DNA from: Euglena gracilis
Taxonomy: Eukaryota
Direction: 5' to 3'
Length of the DNA: 64,000 nt
Assembly (NCBI GenBank): GCA_039621445.1
Contig: CP154954.1
Span: forward strand, 23,386,954-23,450,953
Part shown: positions 5,847 through 34,046 of the stretch, piece after piece
Position numbering within the stretch: position 1 is the stretch's first letter
Layout of the letters: every line of letters starts with the position of its first letter
Position numbers and translations under genes: made by a program
Notes under the pieces: generated by a model
What the model was told of the DNA's origin: nothing
Databases searched by the model: none
What the model saw: only the letters and a program-made list of their open reading frames with translations

Positions 5847-8800
5847 TCAGCTCCTGCGCGCGCGCTGCCAGCCGCCTGTCCTGAGCGTCGAAGGAGAGGG
5901 GAAGGAACAGAAAGATGAACTGGAACACGACCACCATGGAGAAAATCCCAGGTTGACGCCAGGCCTTTTCCATTTCCCCATGGGGTGTGGGCAGGGGGCG
6001 GGGGTGGCCTCCTTGTTGGGAAGGAAGGGCCGGGTCGCACCGTGGCCATGCAGGGGCACGCCTCCGGTGGTGGTGCCCCCTCGCCGCAGGGACGGGTCAT
6101 GGGGGTGCACGGGAACGGGGCCCCCTGGTGGGAGGGGGGGATCCCGAGCTGGGGCGTCCCTGCGGGTCGACACGCGGGGGCGGCGACCTCTACCCGTGGG
6201 GGCAGGGGAGACTCGGGGACCGGGTCTCTGAGGTACGCCTGGACTGCGGGGTGGGTACGCGTGTGATATGGGGAGTGATGGGGTGGTGGACGGTGGAGCT
6301 GGGGCAAGGGAAGCGCGGGAGAGCACATCCCTCGCAGACGCGGATCGCACGGAGACGGGGCGCTTGCCGCTCGCGGGCTGCCGGTGGACCCTGACCGGGT
6401 ACCTGGGGTGGGCCGCTTGTTGGGGACCCGCCGGGCCAACATCTCCTCCGTCTTCTTGGTCTCGATCTCCTTCGTCTCCTCCATCACCTTCATCATCGTC
6501 TCCAGCAGAATCATCACCTTCTCGACATACATCTCCGTCCTCGGGGTCCTGCCACATCCACTCCTCTGGTGGCTCCTCCCAGGACAGCCCAAACTCCTTC
6601 TCCTTCTCCTTCTCGATCTCCACAGCGTGGCAGATGGCGATGTGGGCTTCCTCCGGGAACCTCGAAAGGTACTTCATGATGTCCTCCTTGATGTCGTGCT
6701 CGACGAAGTACGACACGATGGGGGAGGCGTACCGGTGGAAGAAGTGCCGCAGCGGCTCCCACGTCTTCTCCTCGTACCCCAGCCACTTGACGAGGAACTC
6801 GAGGTCGCCGTTGGCATCGCGCCGGTGGGTGACCACCGCCTCCACTTCCCACTCGTCCAGCCGGGAACCCTCCTCCGGCCTGGATTGGCGGAAGTGGAAG
6901 AGACGGAGCGGTGGCCCCATGAGGGCTGGATCGTGGCGGTAGCTCTTGATTTGAGATCGGTGGGCCACCTGCTTCCGGCCATCCTCCATCTGGAGCACGT
7001 ACGTGTGCTCACTGGTGCGCTCTGCCACCACGCACGGCCCGATCCAGTACGTCTCCAGCTTCTCGCCGGTGCGGGTGCGCGGGCGGAGATACCAGACCTT
7101 GTCGTTGATCTCCAGCTCCGGCAGCTCTTTCCTCCTCTTGTTGACCGCCTCGGCTGTCTTGGCGTGCTCCTCGTTCAGGATCTTCGCAACACGATGATCG
7201 ATGTCCTGCATGCGCTCGAAGAAGGCCACCGCGTCCTCGGCCCGCGTGGGCGGCTGGTACGGCACCCCGCCATACCACCGCTCGCGGCCGAAGAGCACCT
7301 GGAAGGGGCTCAGGCCGCTGGGCCCAGCACTGTCGTGCAGGGTCCGCAGGGCCCGCGGCAGCGCCTCCGGCCACTCCACGCCCTCCGCCGCCTTCATCTT
7401 CCTCAGCCGCTTCTGGATCTGCGCGCCGAGGACCTCCGCACGGGCGTTGCCCTCGTGGTGGTATGCTTGGGAGAAGGCATGGCGCACCCCCAGTCTTGCA
7501 CACATTGCCCTCCACCAGGCCCCCACGAAGTGGGGGCCCCGGTCCGACGTGATGACGCTTGGCACGCCGAACTGCGCCCACTGCTCATACATAGCCTTAG
7601 CCACCGCCTCCGCCGTTAGCCCGCGGGTGTGGTGCACGGTTGCGATCGCCCAGCCGGAGTGCCGATCGATGCATGCTGCGAACACGTTCACCAGCTTGCC
7701 GCCCTCCACCTCCACCTCCGGCATCTGGAACAGATCCACGCTCACCGAACACATCACATGGGGCGGCACTGGCGTGGGCGTGATGCGGAGCCGGAGGGGT
7801 TGGTGGGGGTGCTCTGACGCCTGACAGAACTCACACACGGCCAGAATCTTGCCCGCCAGCTCGCGTGCTCGGGAGGGCACCGCAAACTGGAAGTTCCGGC
7901 TGGCCTCATCGAGGAGGCGCTCACCACCGACGTGCCCCGACGCCCGGTGCTGCTCTCGGATTGCCCGCTCGGTCAGGGCATCCGGCACGCACCAGACGGA
8001 ATCCTTCACCAGCTTGCCTGCCTCCTTCCGGTAGCCGGTGGGCCATGGCCGGCCGCGCTTGATGGCCTGCCACGGCTCTTTGAACGTTGGGCACTTCTCA
8101 TACGCCTCACTCCAGTCCATCGCCATCAGGTCCTGGTCCTCTTCTTGCGGGGCTGCGGCCGGGGTGGCTGCAGCTGGCGGCACGGCGGCTGCCACAGGCG
8201 GCACGGCGGCTGCCACCGGCGGCACGGCGGGAGGGCTGGGGTGCCCCCCCACCTTGGGTGGGCCGGCCGACGGCACCGCTCCTTCGGCTGGCTTCTTTGG
8301 GACGACGGTAACGAGCGGGGTGGCGACGGCCTGGCTTCGGGTTGTCACGGCGATCGCTGCGGACGGTAGGATGCTGCGTGCGCTGGCCGCGGGCGGGGAC
8401 GATGCTTGCTCGGCGGACGGGGATCGCACGGCGGGTGCTGCTGCCGGTGCCGCTGCTGGCCGTACGGAAAACCGCACGGTGCGTGGTGTGGCGGGCTGCT
8501 GCTGCTGCTTGGGCTGCGCGGACAACGCCGGGTGCTGCGGCTGCTCGGGCTGCCCGGGCGATGCCAGCGCTGTCGCACTGGGCACTCGCACGGTCGGTGC
8601 TGCAGTCGCAGCCGGCGCGGTGGGGTGCGGTGGGGGCGGCGGTCGGATTGCCGGACTTCCGGCTGCCGGAATCCCGGCGGGCGCCACCTCGGATGCCGGT
8701 GTCCCGGCCGATGCCGCCGTGGCTGCCGGTGTCCCGGCTGGCGACGATGGGGATGCCGCATTTGCGGTCGGGAGGGGGCACACCTTGTCCACCGGGTGTA

Positions 8801-11800
8801 CTGCCTTCGGGCAGCTGCGCTCCGCGGCCTTCTCCTCTCGGATCTGCTGCTCCATCTCCTCGGCGTCCGCTGCCGTCCCGTGCCAGCAGGAGTCTCGGTA
8901 CTCCTGGCTGGCCGGGTACGCCCACCGCGACAGCGCGTCCCCCACCTCGTTCTTCTCCCCCGGCACGTACACCACCTCCACCATGTGCTCGTTCAGCTTG
9001 GAGTGCCACCTCGCCCGCCGGCCTTGCGGTCCCGCTCCTCGGGCGACGTGCTCCTTGTACCAGCTTTCCAGGGACCGGTGGTCCGTCAGCACCAGCACCT
9101 TCTGCCCGGTGATGTAGCCGCCCCACTTGTCCAGCGCGCTCACCACCGCGTACGTCTCCTTGTAGCTGGTGTCCCACCGCAGCCGCTGCCCCTCCGTCAG
9201 CTTCCTGCTCATGAAGCCCACCGCCACCGACGCCCCGGGCTTCAGGAGCTCCTCCACCGAGGGGATGCCCTCCACCTTCGGCAGCTGCTCCAGCACGGCG
9301 CCCACCGCGTAATCGGAGGCGTCTGTGCGGAGCACGAACGGCTTGTTCATGTCCACGTGCCACAGCTCCAGGTCCGCCACCAGCGCTGCCTTCAGCTTCT
9401 CGAACGCCTCCAGCTCGGCCGCGGACCACACGATGGGGTGCTTGCTGCCCGCCCGGGACAAATCCCGTGGTAGCTTCAGCTTCTCCTGCAAGGGGGCGGC
9501 CAGCTCCGAGTACATACGTACATACCCCGAATAATAATTGCAGAGGCCGAGAAAGGCGCGCAAACTCGTCACATTGGCCGGGGGTTGCCACCGCTGCACC
9601 GCCGCCAGCTTGCCGCTCGCGGGCACGCGCTTGCCCTCCCCCAGCACGTGCCCCACGAACTCCGCCCTCTTGCGGAACAGCTGCGCCTTCTTCTTATCCG
9701 CCACCCACCGATCCGCCTCCAGCGCCCGCAGGGTCTCACGCAGATCCCCCGCGTGCCGCCTGATCAGCTCCTCGTCGCTCCACCCCGGCAGCCGCCTCGT
9801 GCTCACCAGGATGTCGTCGAAGTAGGGGTGGGTGTGGGCGGAGACGTTGCGGCAGGTCGCGTCGATGTCCCTCTGGAGCAGCGCCGGACCGACGTTGATG
9901 CCCTGGGGCCAAACAGTCCACTGCCAGAGGCCGCCGGGCAGGTGGATGTTGGTGATGGGTCGGCTTTCCTCCGCCATGGCCACCTGGTGGAAGGCGTCCC
10001 GCAGGTCCACCGTCGAGAAGATCTCGCACTTCGCCTGCTCGCTCACGATGTCCTCCGTCAGCGGTAGGGGGTAGGAGTCCATCTGCAGCATCTTGTTGGT
10101 CAAGCTGTAGTCGCACACCAGCCTCCACTTGCCCGACTTCTTGCGGATGGGGAAGGCGGCCGCCCTCCACGGCCCCCGCCCCGCCTCCAGCTTGCCGTCC
10201 GCCAGGCACTCCCGCTCCATCTCCCTCAGGGCCTCCAGCCGCTCGCCCTTGAGGTTGATGATCCGGCCCACCACCGGGGTTGCTCCCGGCTTCAGCCTCA
10301 GCACCGCCTTCCCATGGGTGCCCCGCGCCGGGGGACACGGCCACACCCGCTCTCGGAACACCCGGCCTTCGAACTCGTTGATGATCTCGTCCCGCAGCTG
10401 CCGCGCCAAGGGATGGTCGACGTCGTCTTCTGTCTCCACTACCCCTCGCACCGCCTTCGCCGCTTCTTCGGCCTCCTTCAGCATCATCGCCACCTCTCGG
10501 ACTGCAGCCTCGTCCGTGGTCAGCTGCCGCATCTTCTTCACCGTGGAGAGGTAGCCGTCCAGCTCGTCTTCGTCTTCATCGCCATCTTCCTCCTTCTTCT
10601 CTTCGTCTCCACGCCGCCTCAGGATCCACTTGGGGTCCGCGTGGAGCTGCAAGGTGTCGCGCCATGGCTGGACATCCAGCCGGTTCTCCCGGAGCCACGG
10701 ATACCCCAGAATCAAATCCGTGCTGATGCAGCCGTCGTACGCCACCACCTTCGTCGTCCACGTCCTCGGTCTCCGCTCCTCGTCGTCGGTCTGGGCCGCG
10801 AAGGACAGCTTCAGCTCTGCTTCTCGTTGTCCTCCGGGTAGTGCTTCTCCGCTCACCGTGCGCAGCACCAAGGGTCTTGTTGCCGCGTGGAACACCGACT
10901 CCGGGAACAGCTCCTTCTTCACGAGGGAGGTCTGCGCCCCCGTATCGATCAAGGCTTTCGCCTGGATCTTCATCCCGCCTGCCTCCACCTCCACGTCCAT
11001 CAGCAGCTGGTAGCACCCCCCACGGTGCTCCATCCGGCCGACCGTGAACGGCCGGTTCGGGAGGTGCTGCCACGGCCGCACCACCACCTTCCGCACCTTC
11101 TTCGCCTCCTCCGCCGCCGCCACTTCTTCCCGTGCCTTCTCCCCCAGGCACAGGTACCGCACCACCCCCTCCGGGATGCGGTAGGCCTCCTCCCTTGTGC
11201 ACCTGCGCTCGCCGCCACTGCCTCCCAGCTGCAGCCGATGTCGTCGTACGCCGTCTGGTCCTTCCACCATGCTGCCGCACTTCCCACCACAGATGACGTC
11301 GTCCAGCTCCTTCGCCATCGCATCGCTGACCCAGAAACGGGTCGGCTTGCGATACCCGTATTCCGCGAAGCGGCAGTAGTCGATATCCACGTACCGCACT
11401 CCGCGCAGGACTCGTCGCCACCGCAGCAAGCCGAACCTCGGGTTTTCAATCCACCACCGCGTAGGCGCCAAGTACTCCACCAGCTCCCTCGTGGCCTTCA
11501 CCACCGCGTCCGCCATGCGGAGCCTCCTCTTGCGGGTGGTGAGGGCTGCGGAGTACTCGGTACAGGGCGGGGACGCCGCGATGACCTCGAAGTAGCCGGG
11601 AGCGTACTGTTCCCAGTACCTCCACTTCCTCACGTCGGCCACGATGTCCGGCTTCCACTTCTCGTCCCAGTCCACGCTGATCACCTTGAAGCCCATCTTC
11701 TCCAGCGCTCTTCTGACACTGCCCGTTCCGGAGAACAGGTCCAGCGCCCATCTTTCCTTCTCTTCCTTTGCCGCCTTCTTCACCGGCTCTTTCTTCTCCT

Positions 11801-12452
11801 TCTTCGCCGGTGCTTTCTTCACCTCCTTCGCCGGTGCTTGTCTTTCTTGTGGTGGTGTCTTGTGGAGACTTGGTGATGCCTTCGGTGATGACGTTGTCGG
11901 TGTTGTTGATGGCGATGACGTCGATGCTGTCTTCGTTGCCGATGCCGTCGGCGTTGATGTGGTCGATGATGTCTTCGTTGCCGACGCCGTCGGCGTTGAT
12001 GAGGGCGATGATGTCACCTTCGCCTTCGGCACGCTCGGTGATGTTGATGGGGACGATGGTGTCGGCTTCGCCTTCGACACCTGCCGTAGGCAGGGTCTCT
12101 CCCCTTCCTTTGGAGACTTCCTGCCTCTTCTCTTTCTTTGGACCAGCCGCCATCCTTCTTCTTCATACTCCACCGCTCTTACCAGCCTCGTCCCTGGTGC
12201 GGATGTCAGCTGGGGGGTTGACTGCCGGTCCAGGCCCTTCCCCTTCACCTGGACGGCCCCGTCATTGCTGCGTCGATGTCGTCCCGGCCGCTTCTCCTTT
12301 GCCGGAACCTTTCTCGCCGCCTTTGCCTTTCCCCTTACCCTTGCCTTTGCCTTTTCCACCATCTTTCCCCTTGGCTTCGCCGCCTTTGCCGGTCCATCCT
12401 TCATTCCACGGCTGCTGGTTGCCTTTGCCTCGGCCAGCCCAGCCTTGGGCAT
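5847..12452 (-). CDS. pol: Pol polyprotein of element A: C5-MTase, aspartic protease, RT, RNase H, Pro/Ala-rich linker, integrase, chromodomain
   Basis: Uninterrupted 2201-aa ORF with LDLFSGTG/SPPC/ENP (MTase), LIDTGA (PR), WRLVCDY, DLRDAFHQ, YFDD (RT), TDASDYAVGAVL, TDH (RH), H..GH...C..C, SVDLF, SDRG, RAE (IN), WEVEAVV...FLVKWLGY..KTWEP (chromo). True start uncertain. Confidence 0.96.
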   Translation of the reverse strand: MPKAGLAEAKATSSRGMKDGPAKAAKPRGKMVEKAKARVRGKAKAARKVPAKEKRPGRHRRSNDGAVQVKGKGLDRQSTPQLTSAPGTRLVRAVEYEEEGWRLVQRKRRGRKSPKEGERPCLRQVSKAKPTPSSPSTSPSVPKAKVTSSPSSTPTASATKTSSTTSTPTASATKTASTSSPSTTPTTSSPKASPSLHKTPPQERQAPAKEVKKAPAKKEKKEPVKKAAKEEKERWALDLFSGTGSVRRALEKMGFKVISVDWDEKWKPDIVADVRKWRYWEQYAPGYFEVIAASPPCTEYSAALTTRKRRLRMADAVVKATRELVEYLAPTRWWIENPRFGLLRWRRVLRGVRYVDIDYCRFAEYGYRKPTRFWVSDAMAKELDDVICGGKCGSMVEGPDGVRRHRLQLGGSGGERRCTREEAYRIPEGVVRYLCLGEKAREEVAAAEEAKKVRKVVVRPWQHLPNRPFTVGRMEHRGGCYQLLMDVEVEAGGMKIQAKALIDTGAQTSLVKKELFPESVFHAATRPLVLRTVSGEALPGGQREAELKLSFAAQTDDEERRPRTWTTKVVAYDGCISTDLILGYPWLRENRLDVQPWRDTLQLHADPKWILRRRGDEEKKEEDGDEDEDELDGYLSTVKKMRQLTTDEAAVREVAMMLKEAEEAAKAVRGVVETEDDVDHPLARQLRDEIINEFEGRVFRERVWPCPPARGTHGKAVLRLKPGATPVVGRIINLKGERLEALREMERECLADGKLEAGRGPWRAAAFPIRKKSGKWRLVCDYSLTNKMLQMDSYPLPLTEDIVSEQAKCEIFSTVDLRDAFHQVAMAEESRPITNIHLPGGLWQWTVWPQGINVGPALLQRDIDATCRNVSAHTHPYFDDILVSTRRLPGWSDEELIRRHAGDLRETLRALEADRWVADKKKAQLFRKRAEFVGHVLGEGKRVPASGKLAAVQRWQPPANVTSLRAFLGLCNYYSGYVRMYSELAAPLQEKLKLPRDLSRAGSKHPIVWSAAELEAFEKLKAALVADLELWHVDMNKPFVLRTDASDYAVGAVLEQLPKVEGIPSVEELLKPGASVAVGFMSRKLTEGQRLRWDTSYKETYAVVSALDKWGGYITGQKVLVLTDHRSLESWYKEHVARGAGPQGRRARWHSKLNEHMVEVVYVPGEKNEVGDALSRWAYPASQEYRDSCWHGTAADAEEMEQQIREEKAAERSCPKAVHPVDKVCPLPTANAASPSSPAGTPAATAASAGTPASEVAPAGIPAAGSPAIRPPPPPHPTAPAATAAPTVRVPSATALASPGQPEQPQHPALSAQPKQQQQPATPRTVRFSVRPAAAPAAAPAVRSPSAEQASSPPAASARSILPSAAIAVTTRSQAVATPLVTVVPKKPAEGAVPSAGPPKVGGHPSPPAVPPVAAAVPPVAAAVPPAAATPAAAPQEEDQDLMAMDWSEAYEKCPTFKEPWQAIKRGRPWPTGYRKEAGKLVKDSVWCVPDALTERAIREQHRASGHVGGERLLDEASRNFQFAVPSRARELAGKILAVCEFCQASEHPHQPLRLRITPTPVPPHVMCSVSVDLFQMPEVEVEGGKLVNVFAACIDRHSGWAIATVHHTRGLTAEAVAKAMYEQWAQFGVPSVITSDRGPHFVGAWWRAMCARLGVRHAFSQAYHHEGNARAEVLGAQIQKRLRKMKAAEGVEWPEALPRALRTLHDSAGPSGLSPFQVLFGRERWYGGVPYQPPTRAEDAVAFFERMQDIDHRVAKILNEEHAKTAEAVNKRRKELPELEINDKVWYLRPRTRTGEKLETYWIGPCVVAERTSEHTYVLQMEDGRKQVAHRSQIKSYRHDPALMGPPLRLFHFRQSRPEEGSRLDEWEVEAVVTHRRDANGDLEFLVKWLGYEEKTWEPLRHFFHRYASPIVSYFVEHDIKEDIMKYLSRFPEEAHIAICHAVEIEKEKEKEFGLSWEEPPEEWMWQDPEDGDVCREGDDSAGDDDEGDGGDEGDRDQEDGGDVGPAGPQQAAHPRYPVRVHRQPASGKRPVSVRSASARDVLSRASLAPAPPSTTPSLPISHAYPPRSPGVPQRPGPRVSPAPTGRGRRPRVSTRRDAPARDPPLPPGGPVPVHPHDPSLRRGGTTTGGVPLHGHGATRPFLPNKEATPAPCPHPMGKWKRPGVNLGFSPWWSCSSSSFCSFPSPSTLRTGGWQRARRS
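11149..11750 (-). other. DNA cytosine-5 methyltransferase-like domain within pol of element A
   Basis: Motif I ALDLFSGTGS, II/III VISVDWD...VADV, IV AASPPCTEYS with the catalytic PC, VI WIENP, VIII-like YRKPTRFW, X-like RIPEGVV. Confidence 0.9.
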
Positions 12453-15126
12453 CGTTGGAGTCCTTGGTCTCGTCCACCTTCTTCGCTTCTCCTTCCTTTT
12501 CTTTCTTCACCGCTTCCTTCTTCACTTCCTTGATGTTGGACTCCTCCTGGACTCCTTGATTGGCCTTGGTGTCGGTCTCGTCATCTTCATCTTCGACATC
12601 CACTTCCCGCTGCCATCTTGTGGGTGCCGCCGGTTTGCGGTGGGCCGGCTCGGGGTCGCCCATGGTGGCGGCCCGCTGGTCCACCCTCAGCCACCGCACC
12701 ATGAGGTCGTTGACTTGGGTGGCGGTGAACTCCACGGTGTCCGGGGCCACCCGGACCTCCACCAGACAGCTTCTGCCGGTCGTACACCACCTTGATGGCC
12801 GCCCGGTGGTCATCGTCCGCCGAGACCACCTTGATTCTTCTGCCTTGACGATCCACTTTCTTCGGCACGACGCCCGTCTCCTCCACCACCATCTCCGTCG
12901 CCTCCGCCACCGTCACATCCTCCGGTAGGCCTTCCAGGACCAGCGCCGCGTGGTCACGGCGCCGATCCTCTTCATGGGCCAGCCGCTTCCTCCATGGCTG
13001 ACCCAGCTGGTCCACCACCAGGCGGGCTAGCTCCACGTCCGTCACCGATATGCATCGCTGGGGGGGGGGGGAGGGGGAGGGGGGGGGGCGGGGTGTGGGG
13101 GTGGGGTTGGGCGGGTGTGGGGGCTTGTGGGTACGGGGGGGGTGGAGGGGGGGGGGCTTTCTTTCTTTCGGGGGGGGGGGGGGTGGGGGGGGGGGGGGGG
13201 GGGGGGGGGGTGGGGGGGGGGGGCGGGGGGGGGGGGGGGGGACAGCGCCTTGGCGTTGGCGAAGTACTCCCGCCACTCGCGCTCCATCAGCTTGCCCCGC
13301 GTCACCACCTTGAGGTGACGGAGCTTCCTTCGTAGTGCTTCTCGGTCGTCTCCACCCAGCTCCAGGTCCAGCCTCGCCCACAGCTCCTCGAACGGCATCT
13401 CGGGGTAGGTCTCCACCATCAGGTCGATGTGCAACGCCGTCGCCTCGTCCACCGTACTCCGCAGCAGCGCCACCCACTGCGCCTCGCTGAGGAGGGGGAC
13501 CATCCCCTCCACCTCGCGGAGGTAGGGGAGCCACCGCCGCCTCCATTGGGGCCAGTCCTCGGCGTTACCCGAGAACCGGCCCGGATGCCTCCCCCCGAGC
13601 GCATCCAGGAGGTGCGGTGGCAGGATCTGCAGCTGGGGAGCCCCCAACGGCAGGGTGGTTGCTTGGACTTCTCGGATGGCGGTTCCCCTCACGGGTGCGG
13701 GCACGCTCGCCCCCGCACGCATGGGGGCGGCGGTGCTGGCGGGTCGCGATGCCGGTGCATATGGATGCGACGACAGTGCGGACTGCTGCACTTGCGCGCG
13801 GGACGGTTGCGGATGGGATGGTGCACGTTGGGCCGCGGAGGACGACGGTGGACGCTGGGACACGGACAGCGGCTCTGCTCGGATGACAGCGGTGCTCGGT
13901 CACCGGGGAAATGCATATGCGGATTGCGGCATGGATATCCCTTCCCTTGCCGGGCGCGCGGTGGTTGACGATGAGGACCGCTCAGCCGGGGCTCGGGCCG
14001 CCCCCGCCGAAGCAGGCTGGGGGGCAGACTGGCAGGGATCGGCTGCCCTTCGGGTTGGCGGCGTGGTCTGAGCCGCCGAGGACACCGGGGGTCCCCCGGC
14101 TTGGCGGAGACTGGACATCTTGACAGACCACTGCTTGATCTCCTCCTTCGCCATCTGAATCTCCCTGAACAGCGCCGTCACCACTTGGTCCACTTCCCGG
14201 AGGGCCTTCTCCAAGTACACCCTGCACTTGCCCTCCAACTCCACGGAAATCCGGTCGGCCAGCTTGTTGAAATACTGTACCTGCAACGCCGGGATCTCGG
14301 TCTTGGAGTTGAGCTCCATCCGCTGCAGTCGCTCCTCCATCTGCCGCACCACCGTGGCGATCTCCTCCCGCGTCACCATGGCTCCCCGGAGACGGGCCAC
14401 CTCCACTGCCGTTTCCGGGTCCACCACCCGGGCCGCACCCTCGCCGGGGCCGGCACGCACCATCGCCGTCAAGCCTTGCACCTCTGCCTCGCGGCATCGG
14501 TGCTCAGCCTGCACGGCGGCGATTGCTTGGGCCGCCTCATCCGCCGCCTTTCGGGCGGCCGCCTTGGCTTGCGCCACTTGGCCCTCGAGCCGTCCGTGCT
14601 GGGCTTGGATGGTCTCCATGAACTGCGCGATGACCTTGCCTTGCCCCTCCGCAACTTGCCGATAGGCCGCCGCGGACGCATCCTTCGTGGCCTTGATCTC
14701 CTTGTCCATCTCCTCCAGCGCCGCGGTTGGCCAGTCATCCCACATCTCCCGGGTGCGGTTGCCCAGGAGGTCGAGCTGGGCCACCACCTGCCCGAGACTC
14801 GCCTCCACGGCGTCGATGCGGCTCGTCAACCACACCGCCACCGCCTCCGACACCCCGGGATACTCGTCCTGCATGGGCTGGTCTTGTACCGGGACTTCAT
14901 CCCCGGCACCAATCTCCTCCTGGTACATCTCGGGGGCCATATCTTCCTCGTATCCCTCACCTGCGGGCTCCGCCTCGTCGTACATCTCGAGGGTCTGCTC
15001 GTACGTCTCCTCTGCCTGGTCATACTCCACACCCGCCGCGTCCTCGTCCATCTCATCCACAATCCTTGGCATCTTGAGCGGCCGGTGGGGCGATGAGGCT
15101 TCGGAAAAGGGGTTCGTTCCCCCCAC
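12262..15126 (-). CDS. gag: Gag-like region of element A, in several frames as assembled
   Basis: ORFs 13900..15126 (acidic N-terminus, coiled-coil-like), 13042..13863 (FSGNAEDWPQWRRRW, capsid-like and resembling WDGDPTTWRQFFRDW in element B gag) and 12262..12813 (GK-rich tail). Disrupted by a G-run stretch at about 13055-13240. Confidence 0.7.
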
Positions 15127-15686
15127 ACCCTTTGATCCCCCTTGCGGCTCCCTCTGGGGGTGGTGGTGGGGGAGAACAGCAGCGCCGCTCCCGCCGCGGC
15201 CAGCAGCGGGAAGCGGGCCCGCAGCGGCGTGGCGTCCCGCGGGGACTCCAGCTCCGGCAGCTGGAGCGGCACCAGCGCGAACGCCGCCGCGGTCGCCGCC
15301 GCGGACGCCGCCGCGGACCCCCCCGGGGACGGCGTGGCTGCTGGGGTGGTGCGCAGGGAGTGGGACAGGTACGAGGGTGGGGATGGGGTGGACAGGATGG
15401 GAAATGTGAGCTGGAGTGGGAATGGGAGCTGGGGGTTTGGGCTTATCGCCTTTTCTTGAGCGGGGCTAGGTGGGGAAATGGGGGATTCTTTTTCTGCTGT
15501 GCACGCTGAGGGGGACTGAGCAGCGGCATGCGTGTGCGGGGGATTGGGATTGGGTATGGGGCGGTCTTTTTCATTTGGGGGAGTCCCATGGTGGGGGACA
15601 CCCACCACCGGGGCGGGGTGAGCCTGGGGAGCCGGATCCATCTTGTCGGTGTGATTTGTTCCCAGGAAATTTTGTTCTGTGAAAAA

Positions 15687-15698
15687 CCTCTGCTACCA
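15687..15698 (-). promoter_or_regulatory. Primer-binding site complementary to initiator tRNA-Met, overlapping the LTR by 1 nt
   Basis: Minus strand TGGTAGCAGAGG directly after the 5' LTR; complementary to the ...CCUCUGCUACCA 3' end found in many eukaryotic tRNA-iMet. Confidence 0.88.
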
Positions 15699-24615: not shown

Positions 24616-24778
24616 CTTGGTAGCAGATTGGTTACGATCCTATACATACTTCACAGAAAGAAAGGCTACCAGGTATTACACTTGGTAGCAGATTAGGTCA
24701 CGATCCTACACATACAGCCCGTTTAGAAAGAAACGCTACCAGGTATTACACTTGGTAGCAGATTGGTTCGATCCTACG
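24612..24778 (+). promoter_or_regulatory. Three tandem tRNA-iMet primer-binding-site units
   Basis: TACACTTGGTAGCAGATT...CGATCCTA occurs three times, with TGG at 24618, 24683 and 24753. Confidence 0.85.
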
Positions 24779-24966
24779 CTGACTGGCAGCGGAGGGCCCC
24801 TGCACCGTTTATACACGGTCGCAGCGTCAGCTCCCGGCTTCTAGTCAACGTCTAAGCAGACGAGCAGGCTCCGGAAGGCTCTGTACGGTATTACCTGTTA
24901 CAACCCTTCTGGTGCCAGCACAACTGCTTAGTTTTGTGGGTTTTTGCTGTTTTTGTCATCAGAAAG

Positions 24967-27900
24967 ATGCAAAGCACAGGCCCCAACCATCAATTCAATT
25001 ATGCCTTATTACAGGCATCATTGCAAGACATTGACCAAGAAAATGGGGATTGGAAGCTTTTATGTGAAAGTGCTTCCAGTTCCCACGCCGATGAGGCACA
25101 ATTGGTTCAATTGTCACAATTGCAACACTTGTCATCATTGACAGTGGTCGGCGATGAGCCCTCCACATCATTGGCTTCAGAGGCTAATGCGGCCTCTTCC
25201 GCACTCACCTTGCCACAACGGGGGTATTCGCCTCTGTCTGCGGCAATGGTGCAGCTGCGCACACCGGAGAGACCCGTGGTGATTCCGCCACTGGGCTTCT
25301 CTGGTGATGGTGGGCTGGAAACCCCGTGTTTCTTTCAACCACCACCCGTTCTTCCACCGGCAAGCCCTTACAGAGCTTTGCCACCACCACCCGATCTTGG
25401 GTGCTATCCCGCACTACCTTGGCAACCGGAGACTCGCCTAGTGGTACCAGAATTCTCTGGTACGTCCCAACCCATGGATGGCTATGGGAAGAGCACTGGG
25501 GAGCTCCTCACTGCTGAGGATGTACAGGATATGGTTGCTCGGCTTCCAGGGGATCACCCCCTTGTGAGGCAGTTCAACCATGTGCAACAATGCGTTGCAG
25601 ATTGTGCAACCGCACTCAACAAAGTGCTCCAGTTTGATGAGGACAACCAAAAACATGTCTTCACCAAGCTGGAATACTGCTGGAATTACTTGCAGGAAGT
25701 TGGCAAATATTGCCAGAGGAATTTCGAAAGTGCGGGTATTGACCTTGCAAACTTTCGGGAAACCTTTGACAAAATGTGCCAACAACTCCCGCAAAACTTC
25801 CGGCAAATTGGTGAATGCATGCATGAAGCGGAAACCCGGAATGACTCCAAGTTTCTGCACTTGCATGACTCACTACAATATTTATCGGGACAAATGGAGT
25901 CCTTTTTATCCGCGTTGTCGCATTTGCAACAACAGTTGCATGCACGAGATTCCTCGTCTGCAACATCCAGCAGTGGTGGACTTGTGTCTATGGACCATTT
26001 CACCACATTGTCCGCAACTTTCCATGAATCGCAACACCGCATTATGCAGTTGTGCGATGAAACGGAAAAGTTTCGGCAATTTCAGTCACAAGCCAACGAG
26101 AATTTTGCTCCCCACACGTATCTGCGGCAGTTGGAGGAGCGACTTTCCTGTTTGGAGCAGAAAACCTGGTATTGTGACGCACATCGGGTTGGTTTATCCA
26201 ATCTGAGCGCGAAAGTCGCGGAAGTAGCACAACGGCAGGATTCCCTGCAGTTGCAGTTGCAATCCGACATTGGCGGGATTAACTCGGCCATTGCGGGGTT
26301 GCAACAAAGCTATTCCGCACCTTCCCACCGAGTTCCGGACATTAGCGGTATTCAGACTGCTATTGGGGAACTCCAGACCCGGTATGCATCGGTGTCTACC
26401 AAAGTAACGGAAATGCAGTCTCTACCTGCAGGTTCCAGGACCCAGATTACCGAGAACCCTGATTTCAAGGCATTTTATGACAACATGCTCACTAACAATC
26501 GGGAAACCTTGCAAGATTTCTGCAACAGCCTATTACGGCTTGAGGAATCGGTGAATCGGAATGCCCGATCCACGCAAGGTGAGATTACCAGGTTGGATGA
26601 GCGAATTTCCGCGTTGTTGGATAAGCCACAATTCGGAAATTTGCCCGTGGGTACCACAACCGCGTTGTCGGATAACCCTGCACCGGTTGCACCCACCCCC
26701 ACACCAACCAAGACATCACCTTTGCAGATTCTCTCAAATGCTGTAAAAGCATTAATGGGACAACTCCAATTATTGCGTAAGTCTCACGGGAAACTTGTCC
26801 AAGATGTTACCGGAATTTCCGAAAGGATTCTGCACTTGGATGACCTTTCCCGTTACCGCAAGCGTATTCGCGCTTTGGAGGATGAAGTTGACCGTATTTG
26901 CGGCCAACTCCAACTCGTTGAGCATTTGGAGCAAAGTGTGCATGACGTGACTGTGGGTTTGGATAATGTGTCCAACCAACAGCGGGTTTCACACCGCAAT
27001 TCGGCAGTATGCATTGCCGAAGATGCGCCAAATGTTCCAGAGTCGCGTTTCCATAACCCGGCTCTGGGTGCACATGCACCACCACCACCCGTTTCCCGAG
27101 TGTCACAATCCGCGATTCCGCGAACTGTGCCACCATTGGCCTTGTTCACAACACAAACCCAGTTTTCGGATGAATTTCCCATTACGGGAACCGAATTTTC
27201 GGAAAACACGGCGATTCTGCCAAGTCTCCACCAAGAAATCCATCATTCCATGCTTGTGCGTGGAATGAGCCAAACCCGTACACCGGGAGTTGGTCACATG
27301 TTCCATGCGCGACATACCCCCACACCGGAGAGTCCCCCTACTACGGGTGACCAACAGGGTTTGCGACCGGATTTCCGGTACCAGGATTCACCCTCACCAG
27401 AAATTTCGCGATTCCGACAAGAATCCGGAAAGGATACGCTTGGTGCTCGAGCGTACCCAGGCCCAAAACCGCGGAATACCACCGAGGGTCATTGGGTTTC
27501 TCAGAAAGACTTCAAGGGCACCATCGCAATCGCGAATAAGGTGAAACCCCAATGGGACGGTGATCCAACCACATGGAGACAGTTTTTCCGGGACTGGGAG
27601 TATTACTGGGCATTGAAAGGTCCAACCCAGGACACAAACACGGAGGTGATCAAGATGGAATTCATCGATTGCCTCCCTAGGGATGAGAAGGAGCGCGCGC
27701 GACAACTTGTCATTCGCTACCGCGTTTCCTTTGATGACCTGGTAGAGCAATACGCTTCCACCAGTTCAAGTTTGGTCGCTAGGATTACCCTGGAGACCAA
27801 GTGGCGGCAATGCGCCCCACCCGATCGGAAGTGGAAGTCCATTGACCTTTGGTATGCCAAATGGTTAGGACTTGCCGCTGAAGTGGATGAACTCAGTGAA

Positions 27901-28731
27901 AAGCAAATGCGCGAACAGTTTGATGCTGTTCTCATGCATTTCACGCCTAGCCTCATCAAGGATATCCACCGTGAGGAGTTGGCGAGTCACTCATTGACTC
28001 TTGACCAACGCTGGAACTACGTTTCTAAGCAATTGAAGCTCTCACAGCTTCTTGGTCAGATTCAATCCGCGTATAACGCACACCCAACCGCTGGAATACC
28101 GGCTGGTTCGGTGAACGCATTGCAAAAATCACCGGTTTCACCCACTTCACCAACCACGGGATCGAAAACGCGATACCCGCGTTCTTCGGACCAAGCCACG
28201 AATAAAGTGTGCTTTTTGTGCAACAAATCGGGACATATGTCTCGGGAATGTCCTAATCCTGAAGTGCGTAAGCGTATTCAGAGTCCGCGAGGCTCGACCT
28301 CATCACGGGGTTCGGGTTCCTCCGCGTTTTCACGCCAATCGGGCAATTCACGGTCATCGGGTCCCCGTTCCGGTGGTATTAGCCCCCGGATCCCGTTCCG
28401 CGATGAGCGGAAACACGGTACCCCTCGGGGTAGGTCACCCGGTGCCCCGGCCAAGAAGCGTGATTCTCATCGCGAGACATCGCGATCGCGTTCGCGAAGC
28501 GGATCATCCTCTTCGCGATCCTCATCGGGAAAACCCCGGTACACCGGTCATGGTCGACGGGATATCCGGTCACCACGACGGTTTGACGGGAAATCGGGAA
28601 ACCGATCCCCCCGTTACCCAGAATCGCGACACAAATCTCGGTGTTCGCTTTGTGGATCACCACTCATCCAAATGTCCGCGTTCTCGTTCTCCCCTCCCTG
28701 GCCAACGTCATCGCGGTATGAATCGCGGTGA
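24967..28731 (+). CDS. gag: Gag of element B (coiled-coil-like N-terminus, capsid-like region, CCHC zinc knuckle, RS-rich tail)
   Basis: ORF 24934..28731, first ATG at 24967; CFLCNKSGHMSREC; PQWDGDPTTWRQFFRDW. Confidence 0.85.
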   Translation: MQSTGPNHQFNYALLQASLQDIDQENGDWKLLCESASSSHADEAQLVQLSQLQHLSSLTVVGDEPSTSLASEANAASSALTLPQRGYSPLSAAMVQLRTPERPVVIPPLGFSGDGGLETPCFFQPPPVLPPASPYRALPPPPDLGCYPALPWQPETRLVVPEFSGTSQPMDGYGKSTGELLTAEDVQDMVARLPGDHPLVRQFNHVQQCVADCATALNKVLQFDEDNQKHVFTKLEYCWNYLQEVGKYCQRNFESAGIDLANFRETFDKMCQQLPQNFRQIGECMHEAETRNDSKFLHLHDSLQYLSGQMESFLSALSHLQQQLHARDSSSATSSSGGLVSMDHFTTLSATFHESQHRIMQLCDETEKFRQFQSQANENFAPHTYLRQLEERLSCLEQKTWYCDAHRVGLSNLSAKVAEVAQRQDSLQLQLQSDIGGINSAIAGLQQSYSAPSHRVPDISGIQTAIGELQTRYASVSTKVTEMQSLPAGSRTQITENPDFKAFYDNMLTNNRETLQDFCNSLLRLEESVNRNARSTQGEITRLDERISALLDKPQFGNLPVGTTTALSDNPAPVAPTPTPTKTSPLQILSNAVKALMGQLQLLRKSHGKLVQDVTGISERILHLDDLSRYRKRIRALEDEVDRICGQLQLVEHLEQSVHDVTVGLDNVSNQQRVSHRNSAVCIAEDAPNVPESRFHNPALGAHAPPPPVSRVSQSAIPRTVPPLALFTTQTQFSDEFPITGTEFSENTAILPSLHQEIHHSMLVRGMSQTRTPGVGHMFHARHTPTPESPPTTGDQQGLRPDFRYQDSPSPEISRFRQESGKDTLGARAYPGPKPRNTTEGHWVSQKDFKGTIAIANKVKPQWDGDPTTWRQFFRDWEYYWALKGPTQDTNTEVIKMEFIDCLPRDEKERARQLVIRYRVSFDDLVEQYASTSSSLVARITLETKWRQCAPPDRKWKSIDLWYAKWLGLAAEVDELSEKQMREQFDAVLMHFTPSLIKDIHREELASHSLTLDQRWNYVSKQLKLSQLLGQIQSAYNAHPTAGIPAGSVNALQKSPVSPTSPTTGSKTRYPRSSDQATNKVCFLCNKSGHMSRECPNPEVRKRIQSPRGSTSSRGSGSSAFSRQSGNSRSSGPRSGGISPRIPFRDERKHGTPRGRSPGAPAKKRDSHRETSRSRSRSGSSSSRSSSGKPRYTGHGRRDIRSPRRFDGKSGNRSPRYPESRHKSRCSLCGSPLIQMSAFSFSPPWPTSSRYESR

Positions 28732-28978
28732 CAAGGGTCACTCCTCCAACCGCCATAAAGTCGGTTTCAAGATATCTTGTTTGGAGGATGACACCCCGGC
28801 TTCGGGCAGGGAGGGGGATGAGACCACGGATACCGACTTCGATGAGGCCCGCATGGCGGTGCGCACGTTGAAATCTGTTTATAGCTCTAAAAGGCCCATA
28901 GCCGGCTATTCGGCCGGTTCGTACCTGGAGTAGGGGAGCCCGAGGTCCGAGGGCACGGACCTCTGGGCTGATGAACAG

Positions 28979-31900
28979 ATGGAGGTAGGACCTGATCAAC
29001 CCTGCCCCCCCTGCCCATCTGCCTTTCTGGTCGGTACCTGGAAAATGTTCGGGTCCCCCACCCCCCACTCCAACTTTCCGCTCGGAATGTTGTGCAAAGT
29101 AGGAAAGGGTTCATGGGAAAGCTGGCAAGAAAATATATTTTCGCCAGACCCTTCACTTTGCTTACCACCCATGGAACTTTTGGTCCAAGCGGAAATCAGA
29201 ATCCAAAACTTTTGTGCAAAAGTCAAAATTCTCATTGACACTGGTTGTCGCATTGCACTACTTTTTTGGTTCGGGTTGATACCAACCCCCCTCTTGGTGA
29301 AAGCCAAGAAGCCGATCAAAATTACGACGGCAGACAACACCCCCATGTGCAGTGGTGACTTGGGATGCTTTTTGGACATTGTCCTACCCCTCATCCCCAA
29401 GCACCACTCACACCCCCCCCAACCGCAAAATTTTCCGGATACCTGGGGATACGAATCTGGAATCCATGGTTCTGACGTAATTCTGGGATACCCCTTTTTA
29501 CGTCAGCACCGGCTGGTAGTGGATTGCCACTCCCACGGTTTGCGCACATCACCATTCTCTTCATTGTCCCCCAAACCTTCATCACAGGTGGCGTCAACCG
29601 CGACGACCACCAATTTTTCCACACCGTTTTCAAAAACTTTTACCCCGTTACCAACCACACCAACCAACGTTTTCCACACCGGGTGTACCGAGAAAGTTCA
29701 CCCCCTGCCCATTGACACACCAACTTCCGTTCCCCATGAGGCAGGGCAAGCGAGTAGCGGTACCCCCCTCGTTCCACTGTGTTACAAGACGAAAGCCCAA
29801 AGGCCTGAAGTTATAACGGTGTCGAGTAGTCGCCCAGCTGCACTAATACCCCGTTTTCCACCAGATGTATCGCTTTCAGATACATCTGTACACCCCCCAG
29901 CAGCTACAAAAGCGCATCCCAACTTTTACACACACCCTCACCAGACCAACATGCGCGACCAGGACACTTCCTTCCAATGTGTGCACTGTAGGAGAATTTC
30001 CGCCCAGCCAGATTTCGATTGTGGATGTCTAGTCCAAACACCAACACTAATCCCGATTTCGCGTAACCATACACTTGGTTGCGGTTCGCAATGCACGACC
30101 GTACATCAAGTGCTCCAACAACGAGGTATTGCCTTGTTGTTTGGGACCGCGAAATCCGTGTCACACACCTCCCCCACCTCCATCTGGCATGATATGGACT
30201 GGGTATGCACCCATCCAAACCATCAACCCTTGGGAATGCCCCTAGGGAGTGTGGATGACACACCCTTGACCTATGTTTGCGGATCCCTAAATTGCGTCAC
30301 CAGTCTTCAACCCGCGAACCAGGTCAATAGATACGCGATGCGCGTATGGAACGCATTTAATTTTGGTCAATATCATATTTTGGAGGGATGGTTCTCCAAA
30401 ATCGCGGTTTTGGCTGATTCCTTCGATTTGTCGTTGGAAATTGATGCGGTTTCATCAAAAGCGCATGCGCGCTTGTCGCGATATTGGTCGCGACATTCCA
30501 ACGCGTTTCAAAATTTTGGGGTGATACGGTGCTCTGGATGCACCCTCCCCCAAAACTTATCCCGGATGTGGTGGAGAAAATCCTCCGCAATGAAGCGCGA
30601 GGAGCTCTCCTCATACCCGTCAATCCGAATGCGGATTGGTTTCACCAACTATCCGATGTGTGTTTTCAGTGGTGCGATTTACCCGCTGATGTACCACTTT
30701 TTGAGGATTTTTGTGGTATATTATTACCACCTGTAAAAGAAATCATTTTTCGCGTTTGTTTCTTCGACGCATTCGGAATATCCGATGTGCGTGTGCCAAG
30801 ATGCCTTGGTACCAATGGGGATGCCACACCCTCAACGCAGATTTCTGCGGTCATTGAGAGTGCGGACCAACACCCCAAGTCTGCTGACTATTGTTCGCGA
30901 ATTACTCGCGAATTTCATGGTGTACTGGATAACCCAGTATACGCCTGTGACATCGACCCCGCGATTCGCGGTCCGTTCGGTGTTTGCAAAATCGAGCTCA
31001 AGGATGGCGCTAAACCCATGCACCGGAAATTCCTCCGTTGTTCGGGTGAACGCGAACAGGCTCTCAACGAGATGATTGAGAAGCTCATCCAGCGGAACTG
31101 AATTATCCCTTCCAAGAGCGAATGGACATCACAAGCTTTTGTGGTGCCCAAACCCGCTGACCAGTCTGGTCAGAAGAAGTGGAGACTAGTGCTGGATTAC
31201 CGGTACCTGAACTCCCAAACGAAGGATGACCCCTTCCCGTTACCGCTGATCGAGGATTTGATCACCAAACAATTGGATAACCGGTTGTGGTCAATATTTG
31301 ATCTGGAAGACGGTTTCCATCAGATGCATTTGCATCCTGATTCGCAACCATACACGGCATTCGTGACATCCAAGGGTGTGTACCAATGGACGGTACTCCC
31401 CATGGGTGTTAAGAATGGCCCAGCCATGTTTCAACGCATGATCCAGTGGGTTTTGCGCGATTTACCGTTTGCTCTGGTGTACATCGATGATGTACTGGTG
31501 GGAACCCAACTGCCATCCGCGAAATCGGGCGAGGATATCCTCGACCCGCATTATCGCGATGTGCGCGCGGTTTTATCCGCGTTCCAAAAGCACGTGCTTT
31601 TTGTGAAGGGTTCCAAAATGCACCTGTTTTGCAAAATTATTAAGTTTTGCGGGCATATCCTGAACAACGGGCAGCGTAAAGCCGCACCCAGTAAGATGGG
31701 GGCCATTAAGAAATGGACTCCTGAGGTCATTAAGACCTTAACGCATTTAAAGGGATCCTTTTGGGTTAGCCCAATATTACGCGATTTACATGAAAGATTT
31801 CGCGAAAATCGCGGTACCCCTAACCCGACAACTCAAAAATCGGACACCCGATAACGCAAAAGTCATTTGGGATGACCAAATGCGCGAGGCCTTGAATAAA

Positions 31901-34046
31901 ATCAAGGACTTGCTGCTCGAGAACGTGGTTCTCGATATCGCGGATCCATATAAACCGTATGTCCTGGAGGTCGACAGCAGCGATTACGCTGTTGGCGGAG
32001 TTCTTAGCCAGCATAATGCGGCGAATGAACTCCGACCTGTGGCTTTCTTCAGCAGGAAGCTACAGGACGAAAACGGGAAAGGACAGGTTAAATGGAGCAT
32101 TCGCGAAAAGGAGACATGTGCCATTGTGCTTTTTCTCCAGAAATTCCGCAGCTGGATAGCCAGCAGCTTGGTCCAGATACTCGTATTGACGGATCATGAG
32201 AGCCTTCAACACTGGTATACCGAGGACCTAAACAAGGCCATGTCATCAGTGGGCAGAAGATGCCGATGGCATGAGTTCTTGAGCCAGTTTAACCTGGTGG
32301 TTATCTATACCCCAGGTCACACGCAAGAAGTAGCGGATCCTCTCAGCCGAGCCCCCTGGTATTATCCTGGGAACGCGGATGAGGGTGATGCGACTTTTCA
32401 TGGCAGCCATGAGGCTGACCAGTTCGCACGTCGATCCGACGCTGCGGACAACATGCTCGATTCACTACCCGTTTCCCGGGGGTATCGCAGCATCGCCATT
32501 TCACCATTGCGTGGAAGGCGCCGGCGTGGACGCACTGCCGGACCCCGTCGCAGTACGCGTACGGAAACTCCTACCCCCCTATTTTTCCGCGAATGGGATT
32601 ATTCGCGTGACCCTATATATAGTACCATTGTGAACAGACTTCGTAATGGTGAATCCATGAGAATTCCTCTCTATCACCATTGCGGCTTATTTTCCTTAAT
32701 GATTCTGGTTATAAATATTGTATACCCCAAGACCTGGTTGATGATGTGATTTTGAGCTATCACAACCATGGTCACCCTGGGGCCCCCAAACTTCTTTCAC
32801 TGGTGGGTCGCAGATATTGCACAACCCTGAGTGAAAAAGAATTATTTTCGCGCTGTTTGCGAATTTCGCAAAGGTGCCAAATTTGTCAGGCTGTAAAACC
32901 GCGCAGAGGTACCCCCCCTGGTACGATGGACTTTTTCACCGTACCACCAGACATCTTTACGTCCCTCTGCATGGATTTTCTCGAACTTGAACCTTGCAAA
33001 GGATCAGATGACAAAATTTACGATTACGTTTTTGTTGTCGTCTGTCGGCTGAGTGAGTACATAGTAGCCATTCCATGCCGGAAAGCAGGGTTGACAGCCC
33101 AAATTTTGGCATCCATATTCCTGGAGAAATGTATCTGCTTAATGGGTTTACCGAACGAAATCGTGAGTGATCAAGATCACTTGATCTCTTCGCGGTTCTT
33201 CACAACTTTGTGCGGTTTACTCGGCATTGAGCAGCATTTTTCCATTATATACCGCCCGAAAGGCAATGGTAGAGCCGAGGCAGCCGTGAAATCCGTTGTC
33301 AATATGTTTCGCCTTTCACTGCTGACTCGGGTAAGAATTGGTTATCCGTTCTTCATTGGTGTTTATTTTACATCAATACCTTGCCATGGTTGGTATTACC
33401 ACACTCACCGTACAAAATTGTTTTCGGACGAGACCCTCCGGCCATAGGGGATATCCCCTCGGAGAGATCCGCCCGAAGTAGCGTCAGCTGTGAAGCGTGG
33501 TTTGCAGAAGTGGAATCACTCCGCTCTGCAGTCCAATCACGTATCACAGAAAATCATTCCAACAAACGGAAATCGTTTTTACAAAACATCAACACACCTG
33601 TGTATAGTCCAGGTGACCGCGTGTGGGTACGGAATAACCGCACCCGCATGCAATCTTCCAAGCTAGATCCTCTTTGGCTCGGCCCATGCGAAATCTTGGA
33701 GAGGTTAGGTAGTAGCGGGCGATATAAAGTTGCCGTGCCCAACGGGATTGAGGACGTCCATATGGACGACTTCAAACCGTACCTAAGCCCCCCAGACGGA
33801 AAAGCTATCCCCTGCCTGTATTTCCAGCCCCGTTCCAGATTACCTGAAACGGACGACTTTGTGGTCGATAAGATAATAGACCACAAGGTCGACAGGGGTG
33901 TGCACTACTGGAAAGTTCGCTGGAAAGGGTATGGGCCAGAGGAGGACACTTGGGAACCAGCATCCAGTTTTGTTGGATATATCCAGCAGGATTGGAAGCT
34001 GTGGAACAAGCGCAACAACATAGACATAAACATAAACACTTTCTGA
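28979..34046 (+). pseudogene. pol: Pol of element B: PR, insert, adenine MTase, RT, RNase H, integrase, chromodomain; frameshifted
   Basis: ILIDTG (28979..30736); WRLVLDYRYLN, DLEDGFHQ, YIDD (31141..31854); DSSDYAVGGVL, TDH (31790..32749); HNHGH..CQIC, MDF, SDQD, RAE (32680..33447); [10 protein letters not shown]...[16 protein letters not shown] (33381..34046). TGA at 31099 and at least four frame changes. Confidence 0.93.
30360..30770 (+). other. DIRS-type (phage Dam-like) N6-adenine methyltransferase domain within pol of element B
   Basis: EIDAVSSKAHARLSRYWS..SNAF, frameshift near 30510, then W....LWMHPPPKLIPDVVEKI....ARGALLIP......WFHQL. This matches the D.FAS..N.....Y.S / DAF...W / xPP..LI..V+.KI / ..+.P.W....W pattern. 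Confidence 0.8.

Follow-up and report, generated by a model that had tools for sequence, protein, structure and literature searches.

Two chromodomain Ty3/gypsy retrotransposons of one clade with DNA-methyltransferase modules in a repeat-dense region of Euglena gracilis

The window analyzed here is a stretch of 64,000 nucleotides (nt) from Euglena gracilis (assembly GCA_039621445.1, contig CP154954.1, positions 23,386,954 to 23,450,953 of the forward strand), and all positions below refer to it. It is GC-rich eukaryotic DNA and consists almost entirely of repeats, as judged by self-comparison. Two chromodomain Ty3/gypsy long terminal repeat (LTR) retrotransposons, named element A and element B, were identified in this region; they belong to one clade and encode polyproteins with DNA-methyltransferase modules. 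The original prediction, made from the letters of the window, had proposed the interval 5847-34046 as one system of related retrotransposons with alternative epigenetic writers. The elements are located there, but the extents had to be redrawn to 3835-16336 for A and 24291-34046 for B. The features of A were as follows.

3831-3834, no strand: left target-site duplication GGAT, directly flanking A
3835-4474, minus strand: 3' LTR, 640 bp, termini AGTT...AACT (self-comparison and boundary check)
4475-4486, minus strand: polypurine tract, a purine-only 12-mer abutting the 3' LTR
5847-12506, minus strand: pol frame P0001, open over 2219 amino acids (aa) (open reading frame and Pfam)
6750-6851, minus strand: chromodomain (Chromo, E 3.7e-7, aa 1886-1919)
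7458-7703, minus strand: integrase core (rve, E 9.7e-11, aa 1602-1683)
8988-9428, minus strand: RNase H (RT_RNaseH, E 1.4e-21; RT_RNaseH_2, E 5.7e-18)
9645-10148, minus strand: reverse transcriptase (RVT_1, E 2e-22, aa 787-954)
10707-10991, minus strand: aspartic protease with LIDTGA (weak RVP, E 0.0066, aa 506-554; DTG motif)
11148-11747, minus strand: C5-cytosine methyltransferase domain (P0001 aa 254-453)
12507-15686, minus strand: gag region, a coiled-coil-like N-terminal part and a capsid-like core
15687-15698, minus strand: primer-binding site TGGTAGCAGAGG, the sole match in the window, just inside the 5' LTR
15698-16336, minus strand: 5' LTR (self-comparison and boundary check)
16337-16340, no strand: right target-site duplication GGAT, directly flanking A

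The LTRs of A form a direct repeat with 99.2% identity over 640 bp, and paired LTRs, target-site duplication, primer-binding site and polypurine tract are all present. Because of these features and the open 2219-aa pol, A is a young, near-intact Ty3/gypsy chromovirus, in which pol is intact and gag may be impaired. The frame P0001 is arranged as a basic, low-complexity N-terminus, the C5-cytosine methyltransferase (DNMT), protease (PR), reverse transcriptase (RT), RNase H, integrase (IN), chromodomain and a long acidic and Pro-rich tail. The gag region gave no Pfam match and no CCHC motif was seen in it. Among sequencing runs, 0.67-0.76 of the sampled words of a 4.5-kb piece of A were found in 14 DNA runs (13 from one organism and one from another), and 0.34 in an RNA metatranscriptome. 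The observed/expected CpG ratio was 0.80 in A, 0.92 in B, 0.63-0.79 in the flanks and about 0.5 in the LTRs; it gave no clear signal as a footprint of 5-methylcytosine (5mC) and was not used.

The approximately 1.4 kb between the pol stop and the 3' LTR of A hold low-complexity repeats rich in C- and T-runs (4777-5472). Element A is inserted in another retroelement (764-3888 and 16311-17997). On one side, the frame 16311-17087 begins at the right boundary of A and matched RVT_1 (E 6.7e-13), and at the opposite end the frame 2257-3888 extends into the LTR of A. A 638-letter DNA contig of run X14, from a second organism, matched the window only from 16337 onwards, and its first 212 letters were unmatched in the compared stretch. 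This contig might represent a site without the insertion, in which case A would be polymorphic.

Element B is located on the plus strand and displayed the following features.

24291-24617, plus strand: 5' LTR, about 327 bp, termini AGTGT...ACACT (repeat and pattern searches)
24618-24775, plus strand: three tandem repeats resembling primer-binding sites, starting with TGGTAGCAGATTGGTT, complementary to a tRNA 3' end
24856-28731, plus strand: gag frame P0002, 1291 aa; N-terminus long and coiled-coil-like, CCHC zinc knuckle at aa 1118-1134
29171-29545, plus strand: protease with LIDTGC (motif; tblastn with P0043 aa 79-201)
30326-30780, plus strand: Dam-like, PF05869-related domain (profile of relatives, tblastn)
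31099-31101, plus strand: in-frame stop after the Dam-like domain and before RT (30445-31101 and 31102-31854 share one reading frame)
31147-31662, plus strand: reverse transcriptase (RVT_1, E 1.2e-27)
31868-32290, plus strand: RNase H (Pfam, tblastn), in a frame different from RT
32722-33258, plus strand: integrase, H2C2 and core (Pfam, tblastn), in another frame again
33858-33968, plus strand: chromodomain (Chromo, E 1.2e-10) after an SH3_Tf2-1 domain, in another frame again

The order in B is thus gag, PR, Dam-like domain, RT, RNase H, IN, SH3 and chromodomain. When pol was compared with the intact relative P0032, its alignment fell into five parts, interrupted near 30511, 31757, 32659 and 33321-33336. 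Neither blastn (word size 7) nor a pattern search revealed a 3' LTR of B in the window, and the chromodomain frame stops at 34046. Since its pol carries at least four frameshifts and an in-frame stop and the 3' LTR is missing, B is a dead member of a sister family, truncated at its 3' end. The families of both elements were abundant among the contigs of the sequencing runs, and contigs from RNA libraries (X15, X16) covered parts of both.

A B-like LTR piece with 77.5% identity to the LTR of B was detected in inverted orientation at 42950-43233, together with a weaker match to the LTR start at 39410-39424. These pieces flank, on the minus strand (39410-43235), an 889-aa frame (40323-42992) without Pfam match. 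The unit 39410-43235 is possibly related to B as a non-autonomous element.

The assignment of both elements to the Ty3/gypsy chromoviruses was confirmed, as RVT_1, RNase H, rve and Chromo were found by Pfam in A and in B. Both follow the domain order PR-RT-RNase H-IN with a C-terminal chromodomain, in B spread over several frames. A stretch of the form YP...HG after RNase H, noted in the original prediction, was likewise seen in the translations of both. The similar gag core proposed for the two elements was not confirmed, since no gag similarity between A and B was obtained by tblastn at E<=1e-4. The shared primer-binding site held in part. The common portion is only TGGTAGCAGA, and A carries one 12-nt site, whereas B carries three tandem copies with a period of about 65-70 bp, each with 22-23 nt complementary to a tRNA 3' end, rather than a single site. 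These sites are putatively of the initiator-Met tRNA type. Neither tRNA genes nor Rfam families were detected within the 64-kb window.

A C5-cytosine methyltransferase-like domain N-terminal to the protease of A had been predicted, and both a family profile and an AlphaFold2 (AF2) model agree with it. The domain is compact, about 200 aa, and displays the motifs FSGTGS (I), SPPCTEYS (IV, with the catalytic Cys), ENP (VI) and RKPTR (VIII-like), followed by a C-terminal YRIPxxVV helix. Between RKPTR and this helix lie about 40-50 residues with conserved Cys/His, a short segment at the place where larger enzymes have the target-recognition domain (TRD). The DNMT segment was searched against 5.8 billion proteins and 2693 candidates were scored, of which 25 matched at E<=1e-3, every one a long protein. 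Retroelement RT, RNase H or IN domains were listed for 24 of these 25 in the precomputed Pfam annotation, and the weakest match, P0029, listed PF07727 only; PF00145 was listed in seven and PF05869 in six. When re-scanned with Pfam, all four homologues P0009, P0017, P0013 and P0006 scored 24.4-28.2 bits against PF00145, above the cut-off. In an alignment of 20 domain sequences with 39-61% identity to A, P61 and C62 (the PC dipeptide, which holds the catalytic Cys) and E101 were invariant, and F5, S6, T8, G9 and N102 were conserved in at least 90% of the rows.

A search of the PDB with the segment of A alone returned a sole, irrelevant match (E 0.095), and the family profile was needed. With this profile, 34 PDB sequences were matched at E<=1, and 30 of them were C5-methyltransferases, with DNMT2 on top (9.2e-5); motifs I, IV and VI aligned with those of DNMT2. 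The AF2 model, built on the family alignment, reached a mean confidence (pLDDT) of 93.7. In Foldseek, the top matches listed were all DNA C5-methyltransferases (E 5e-7 to 6e-6, probability 1.0), including DIM2, DNMT3A/B/C, MET1, DNMT1, M.HaeIII and M.HhaI, with query TM scores of 0.5-0.62. Because of the motif conservation, the profile matches in the PDB and the confidently predicted DNMT fold, A encodes a bona fide C5-methyltransferase domain that is probably active. No remnant of a Dam domain was detected in any frame of A by a six-frame scan with hidden Markov models (HMMs).

For B, the original prediction had placed an adenine methyltransferase after the protease. A Dam-like domain does lie between PR and RT, but it is not an intact catalytic writer, as its catalytic tetrad (motif IV) reads HPPP and a one-base frameshift near 30510 splits it. 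The B fragments P0003 and P0004 matched nothing in Pfam, even at E 10. The RT of B groups with polyproteins many of which list PF05869, and an HMM constructed from the Dam regions of relatives matched the B frames 30326-30514 and 30508-30780 (E 3e-14 and 7e-34). The Dam region of P0017 also matched B at 30529-30723 (tblastn, E 1e-7). Elsewhere in the window the Dam HMM had no match, and the six-frame scan detected no DNMT remnant in any frame of B. At the Dam break, contigs of other copies were in frame, with loose ends at 30511 (22 in run X1 and three in X14). These contigs from DNA runs match the window from 30511 on, and their letters upstream differ from those of the window. Because the contigs of other copies stay in frame, the frameshift of B is a copy-specific loss of one base.

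The loss of motif IV is wider than this copy. The conserved Dam pattern of the relatives is VDAF...W...LW-x-NPP-[F/Y/W], and motif IV was scored as the tetrad aligned to NPPF. A canonical motif was found in none of the nine scored rows of the 11-row subclade of B, where HPPA, HPPS, HPPL, HPPP, NPPI, NPPV and NPSL occurred, while the sister P0043 displayed NPPF. In the rest of the 49-row clade of B the motif was canonical in 10 of 22 rows, and in the remaining tree rows in 30 of 42. The closest intact relatives of B scored 19.6 (P0031), 16.7 (P0034), 14.3 (P0032) and 13.2 bits (P0035) against PF05869, for which the cut-off is 28.1; P0043 (33.5 bits), P0009 and P0013 passed it, and P0017 and P0037 were just below.

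The domain nevertheless retained 15 invariant positions over 14 sequences at 28-46% identity, and the domains with these positions lie inside polyproteins of 1200-1800 aa. The fold was modeled for P0031, the closest intact relative and not B itself (pLDDT 88.7). The best structural matches of this model were N6-adenine methyltransferases, namely PCIF1 (Z 10.2), METTL5 (8.9), KsgA (8.8) and M.BseCI (8.0), followed by T4 Dam (7.9), M.TaqI (7.6) and EcoDam (7.5), although Z values of this size can reflect the general class I fold. The best Foldseek match of the model reached only E 1.4e-3, and a Dam-family profile matched no PDB sequence at E<=10. Since the catalytic tetrad is eroded while the 15 invariant positions persist, the subfamily of B probably keeps the fold and is likely non-methylating. 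The proposal of B as a writer of N6-methyladenine (6mA) was therefore not sustained, given the degenerate motif IV and the dead copy.

Phylogenetic analysis was carried out with the RT and RNase H blocks of A, B and public relatives. A tree of 163 rows, from which 71 proteins with short RT coverage or surplus outgroups were left out, was compared with a careful tree of 88 rows. Both elements fell into one clade apart from other gypsy elements, as the original prediction had held, with support of 100/100 in the 88-row tree. In the 163-row tree this clade contained 132 rows, was separated from 31 other gypsy rows and had a Shimodaira-Hasegawa-like likelihood ratio (SH-aLRT) support of 100. The two elements are 36% identical in RT and 27-35% in the other pol segments. 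The clade of B, which comprises 49 rows in the larger tree and 18 in the careful one, had support of 98 and 100/97, respectively, and the adenine methyltransferase module (DAM) preceded RT in all 22 assessable rows. The clade of A, with 58 rows and support of 99/98, is sister to that of B, and its basal groups also displayed the order DAM>RT.

Within the ingroup, DNMT was confined to one subclade of 44 rows (support 96/94), in which the orders DAM>DNMT>RT, DNMT>DAM>RT, DNMT>RT>DAM and DNMT>RT occurred. Together with DAM>RT, five orders were thus found among the relatives, and the claim that this lineage shuffles methyltransferase modules around the protease stands. The 8-row subclade of A (support 100/100) was DNMT-only in all six assessable rows and was nested among elements with both modules, such as P0014, P0017 and P0019. 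The layout DNMT>PR>RT was detected in at least six independent contigs (P0005, P0006, P0010, P0016, P0195 and A). The relatives were also checked for elements with both modules or neither: among the 61 assessable ingroup rows, 33 had DAM only, 14 had both, 11 had DNMT only and three had neither. A second, unrelated gypsy group (outgroup rows P0023-P0028) carried the same type of DNMT at the C-terminus of pol.

In P0017, an RNA-binding domain of the histone-mRNA stem-loop-binding protein (SLBP) was detected between DNMT and Dam (E 6.4e-23). Other accessory domains appeared in precomputed Pfam lists only, namely dUTPase in P0075, SET in P0234 and P0237, and PHD fingers in P0025 and P0026.

The simplest history on the outgroup-rooted tree is one in which DAM was ancestral, DNMT was added and DAM was lost in the line of A. 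The Dam module between PR and RT would have been ancestral to the whole clade, and DNMT would have been added later in the larger subclade of A, giving rise to elements with both writers. The subfamily of A would then have lost Dam, while that of B would have retained the Dam-like domain and lost the canonical NPP[F/Y/W] tetrad. The DNMT of A would be made as part of Gag-Pol and would probably methylate cytosines on the reverse-transcribed DNA of the element itself or at its landing site, and the integrase chromodomain would probably steer integration to marked chromatin. A 6mA writer is a less likely reading of the Dam-like domain of the B family than a module that is non-catalytic or altered. 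We assign a probability of about 0.75 to this joint reading of A as a young DNMT chromovirus and B as a decayed member of a sister family on a DAM-bearing backbone.

Several points weigh against it. The relatives were collected from three seeds (the DNMT of A, the RT of B and the RT-RNase H of A), which makes the sampling biased. In 71 of the 132 ingroup rows the N-terminus was too truncated to be scored, calls of an absent module depend on the starts of the gene predictions, and the direction of gain versus loss rests on the outgroup rooting. The domain of A scored below the 22-bit cut-off of PF00145 (19.4 bits, E 8e-4), and only motifs I-IV were covered. The gag of A is interrupted by one stop codon within the frame (13900-13902) and changes frame where it runs through a poly-Pro tract, and therefore this copy may not be autonomous. 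The RNA-library contigs may contain DNA carry-over and were not used as evidence of transcription. Finally, a preprint on methyltransferase-bearing LTR elements (bioRxiv 10.64898/2026.05.21.726589, cited here for its main text) states that eukaryotic DAMs expressed in dam-deficient E. coli gave no rise in 6mA; because this assay was negative, the writer role of DAM is unproven even with a canonical motif.

The original prediction had assumed that related chromoviruses repeatedly and independently took up alternative writers, one for 5mC (A) and one for 6mA (B), as competing systems for self-marking or evasion of host defence. The highly variable module order among relatives would agree with this, as would the unrelated group P0023-P0028 with its C-terminal DNMT, and the preprint infers several independent transfers of DAM into LTR elements. 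However, the consistent position of DAM before RT in the clade of B and on the basal branches of the clade of A, the 14 assessable rows with both writers and the nesting of the DNMT-only subclade of A among dual elements conflict with separate acquisition, and the degenerate motif IV of B removes one of the two proposed writers. With DNMT apparently added, and DAM apparently lost in the line of A, inside a clade that looks ancestrally DAM-bearing, A and B do not represent alternative acquisitions, and we consider repeated capture unlikely. It is quite improbable as well that the methyltransferase-like domains have no function and are carried along as decaying relics, without a role in the life cycle. 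The absence of the canonical tetrad in the subfamily of B, the scores of 13-20 bits of its close relatives, the sub-threshold PF00145 score of A and the negative heterologous assays would fit such decay. Against this, the DNMT of A retains every catalytic motif over 20 sequences and folds confidently in the model, the Dam-like domain keeps its invariant positions within long open polyproteins, and 6mA was reported in the preprint to be enriched on DAM-bearing LTR elements.

Nested insertion or mis-assembly, rather than single elements, could in principle also produce such domain combinations; the preprint raises both for some Euglena elements, the window is rich in repeats, and A is inserted in another RT-bearing element. 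This explanation is very improbable given the location of the DNMT in a 2219-aa frame without interruption, bounded by matching LTRs and a target-site duplication, and the recurrence of its layout in independent contigs. In addition, a short DNA contig of a different run (X14, record 9) covers nt 11458-11900 with three differences, which includes a portion of the DNMT domain together with the adjoining upstream sequence. The succession of modules on a DAM-bearing backbone therefore remains our preferred reading. The observations of the original prediction were largely right, and its interpretation was partly so: the shared modular lineage holds, and the alternative acquisitions, B as a writer and the undescribed status do not.

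A more tentative extension, to which we give limited credence, is an ongoing turnover of epigenetic modules from Dam through Dam plus DNMT to DNMT only, with the family of A as the still mobile end point and a catalytically dead Dam retained in the subfamily of B as a pseudo-enzyme with a new role. In the subfamily of B, such a pseudo-enzyme would be a candidate for binding DNA, RNA:DNA hybrids or 6mA, or for recruiting a host adenine methyltransferase. If this were true, retrotransposon methyltransferases would be exchangeable adaptors that track the host epigenome and not simple writers. Element A is a clean, well-delimited young LTR retrotransposon encoding its own cytosine methyltransferase, with a relative carrying an adenine-type module nearby. 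Both a possible self-methylation of new copies by DNMT and the role of the motif-less Dam domain are now testable questions.

Other repeats were also noted in the window. A 91-bp tandem satellite was found at 1-1013 and again, inverted, at 45305-46078 with 85-95% identity. The stretch 34850-38227 contains an 1125-aa open frame without Pfam match and represents an unclassified repeat family, of which diverged partial copies with 38-62% protein identity are located at 44492-45245 and 20227-21328. Short, diverged and mutually related tandem-repeat arrays were detected at 46722-46903, 54945-55977 and 58439-58983 and coincide with strong GC and AT skew. Pfam analysis of 20 other long frames of the window gave one RVT_1 match and one sub-threshold Peptidase_C70 match and nothing else.

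The original prediction had regarded the elements as an undescribed system. However, both DAM-LTRs, including chromovirus-like ones, and EpiLTRs combining DAM, DNMT and chromodomain are described in the main text of the preprint, the latter in Cymbomonas, where DNMT lies 3'-terminally in pol, and in Euglena, where the layout varies. There, the LTR-borne DAMs are derived from DIRS elements, Asn-Pro-Pro is conserved in almost all DAMs, and the EpiLTR DNMT is placed as sister to DNMT4 and taken as separately acquired. In a full-text literature search, LTR elements combining adenine methyltransferase, DNMT and chromodomain were not found beyond this preprint. Its main text, which the term search covered, makes no mention of DNMT-only derivatives with secondary Dam loss or of the loss of the NPP motif.

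As far as that main text describes them, the EpiLTRs and the Euglena DAM-LTRs share with A and B the Ty3/gypsy chromovirus backbone and the modular, variable domain order, and the EpiLTRs share the DIRS-type Dam and the small DNMT domain in the polyprotein. Our ingroup resembles the variable Euglena layout, and the outgroup P0023-P0028 has the C-terminal DNMT layout. The combination of DAM, DNMT and chromodomain that defines EpiLTRs is found in the relatives P0009, P0013 and P0017 of A. In contrast, A has DNMT and chromodomain without Dam, and B has the Dam-like domain without DNMT. Like the DAM-LTRs described, B is a chromodomain-bearing Ty3/gypsy element with a Dam domain, and its closest relatives display DAM>RT; unlike almost all DAMs reported there, it carries HPPP, in a subclade without any scored NPP[F/Y/W].

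DNMTs within DIRS, LINE and gypsy elements, enzymes that methylate CG de novo, have been reported before (PMC5890265, cited here for its passages on these elements). Among these, KnitGypsy-Dnmt3 of Klebsormidium nitens resembles A in carrying a DNMT with conserved key catalytic residues in a gypsy Pol, but it belongs to the Dnmt3 family, while the domain of A, of about 200 aa, has a minimal Cys/His-rich segment in place of a full TRD. SymbioDIRS-Dnmt3 and SymbioLINE-Dnmt of Symbiodinium also encode a C5-methyltransferase within a retrotransposon, and self-methylation of the cDNA was proposed in that work; unlike A, they have DIRS or LINE backbones with a tyrosine recombinase or an endonuclease and are not LTR elements with integrase and chromodomain. 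The Dam-like "MT" domain of DIRS elements is the same PF05869-related domain as that of B, as far as these sources describe it, while B differs from DIRS in having a DDE integrase, a chromodomain and LTRs instead of a tyrosine recombinase, with Dam between PR and RT. Against this background, the published picture would be refined in that the two modules of the A/B clade are successive layers on one backbone and not alternatives, and an element family can persist after its Dam layer has vanished or the catalytic motif of that layer has been lost. Thus, A and B belong to a known kind of element, to which the DNMT-only derivatives and the loss of the catalytic motif in the subfamily of B are modestly new additions.

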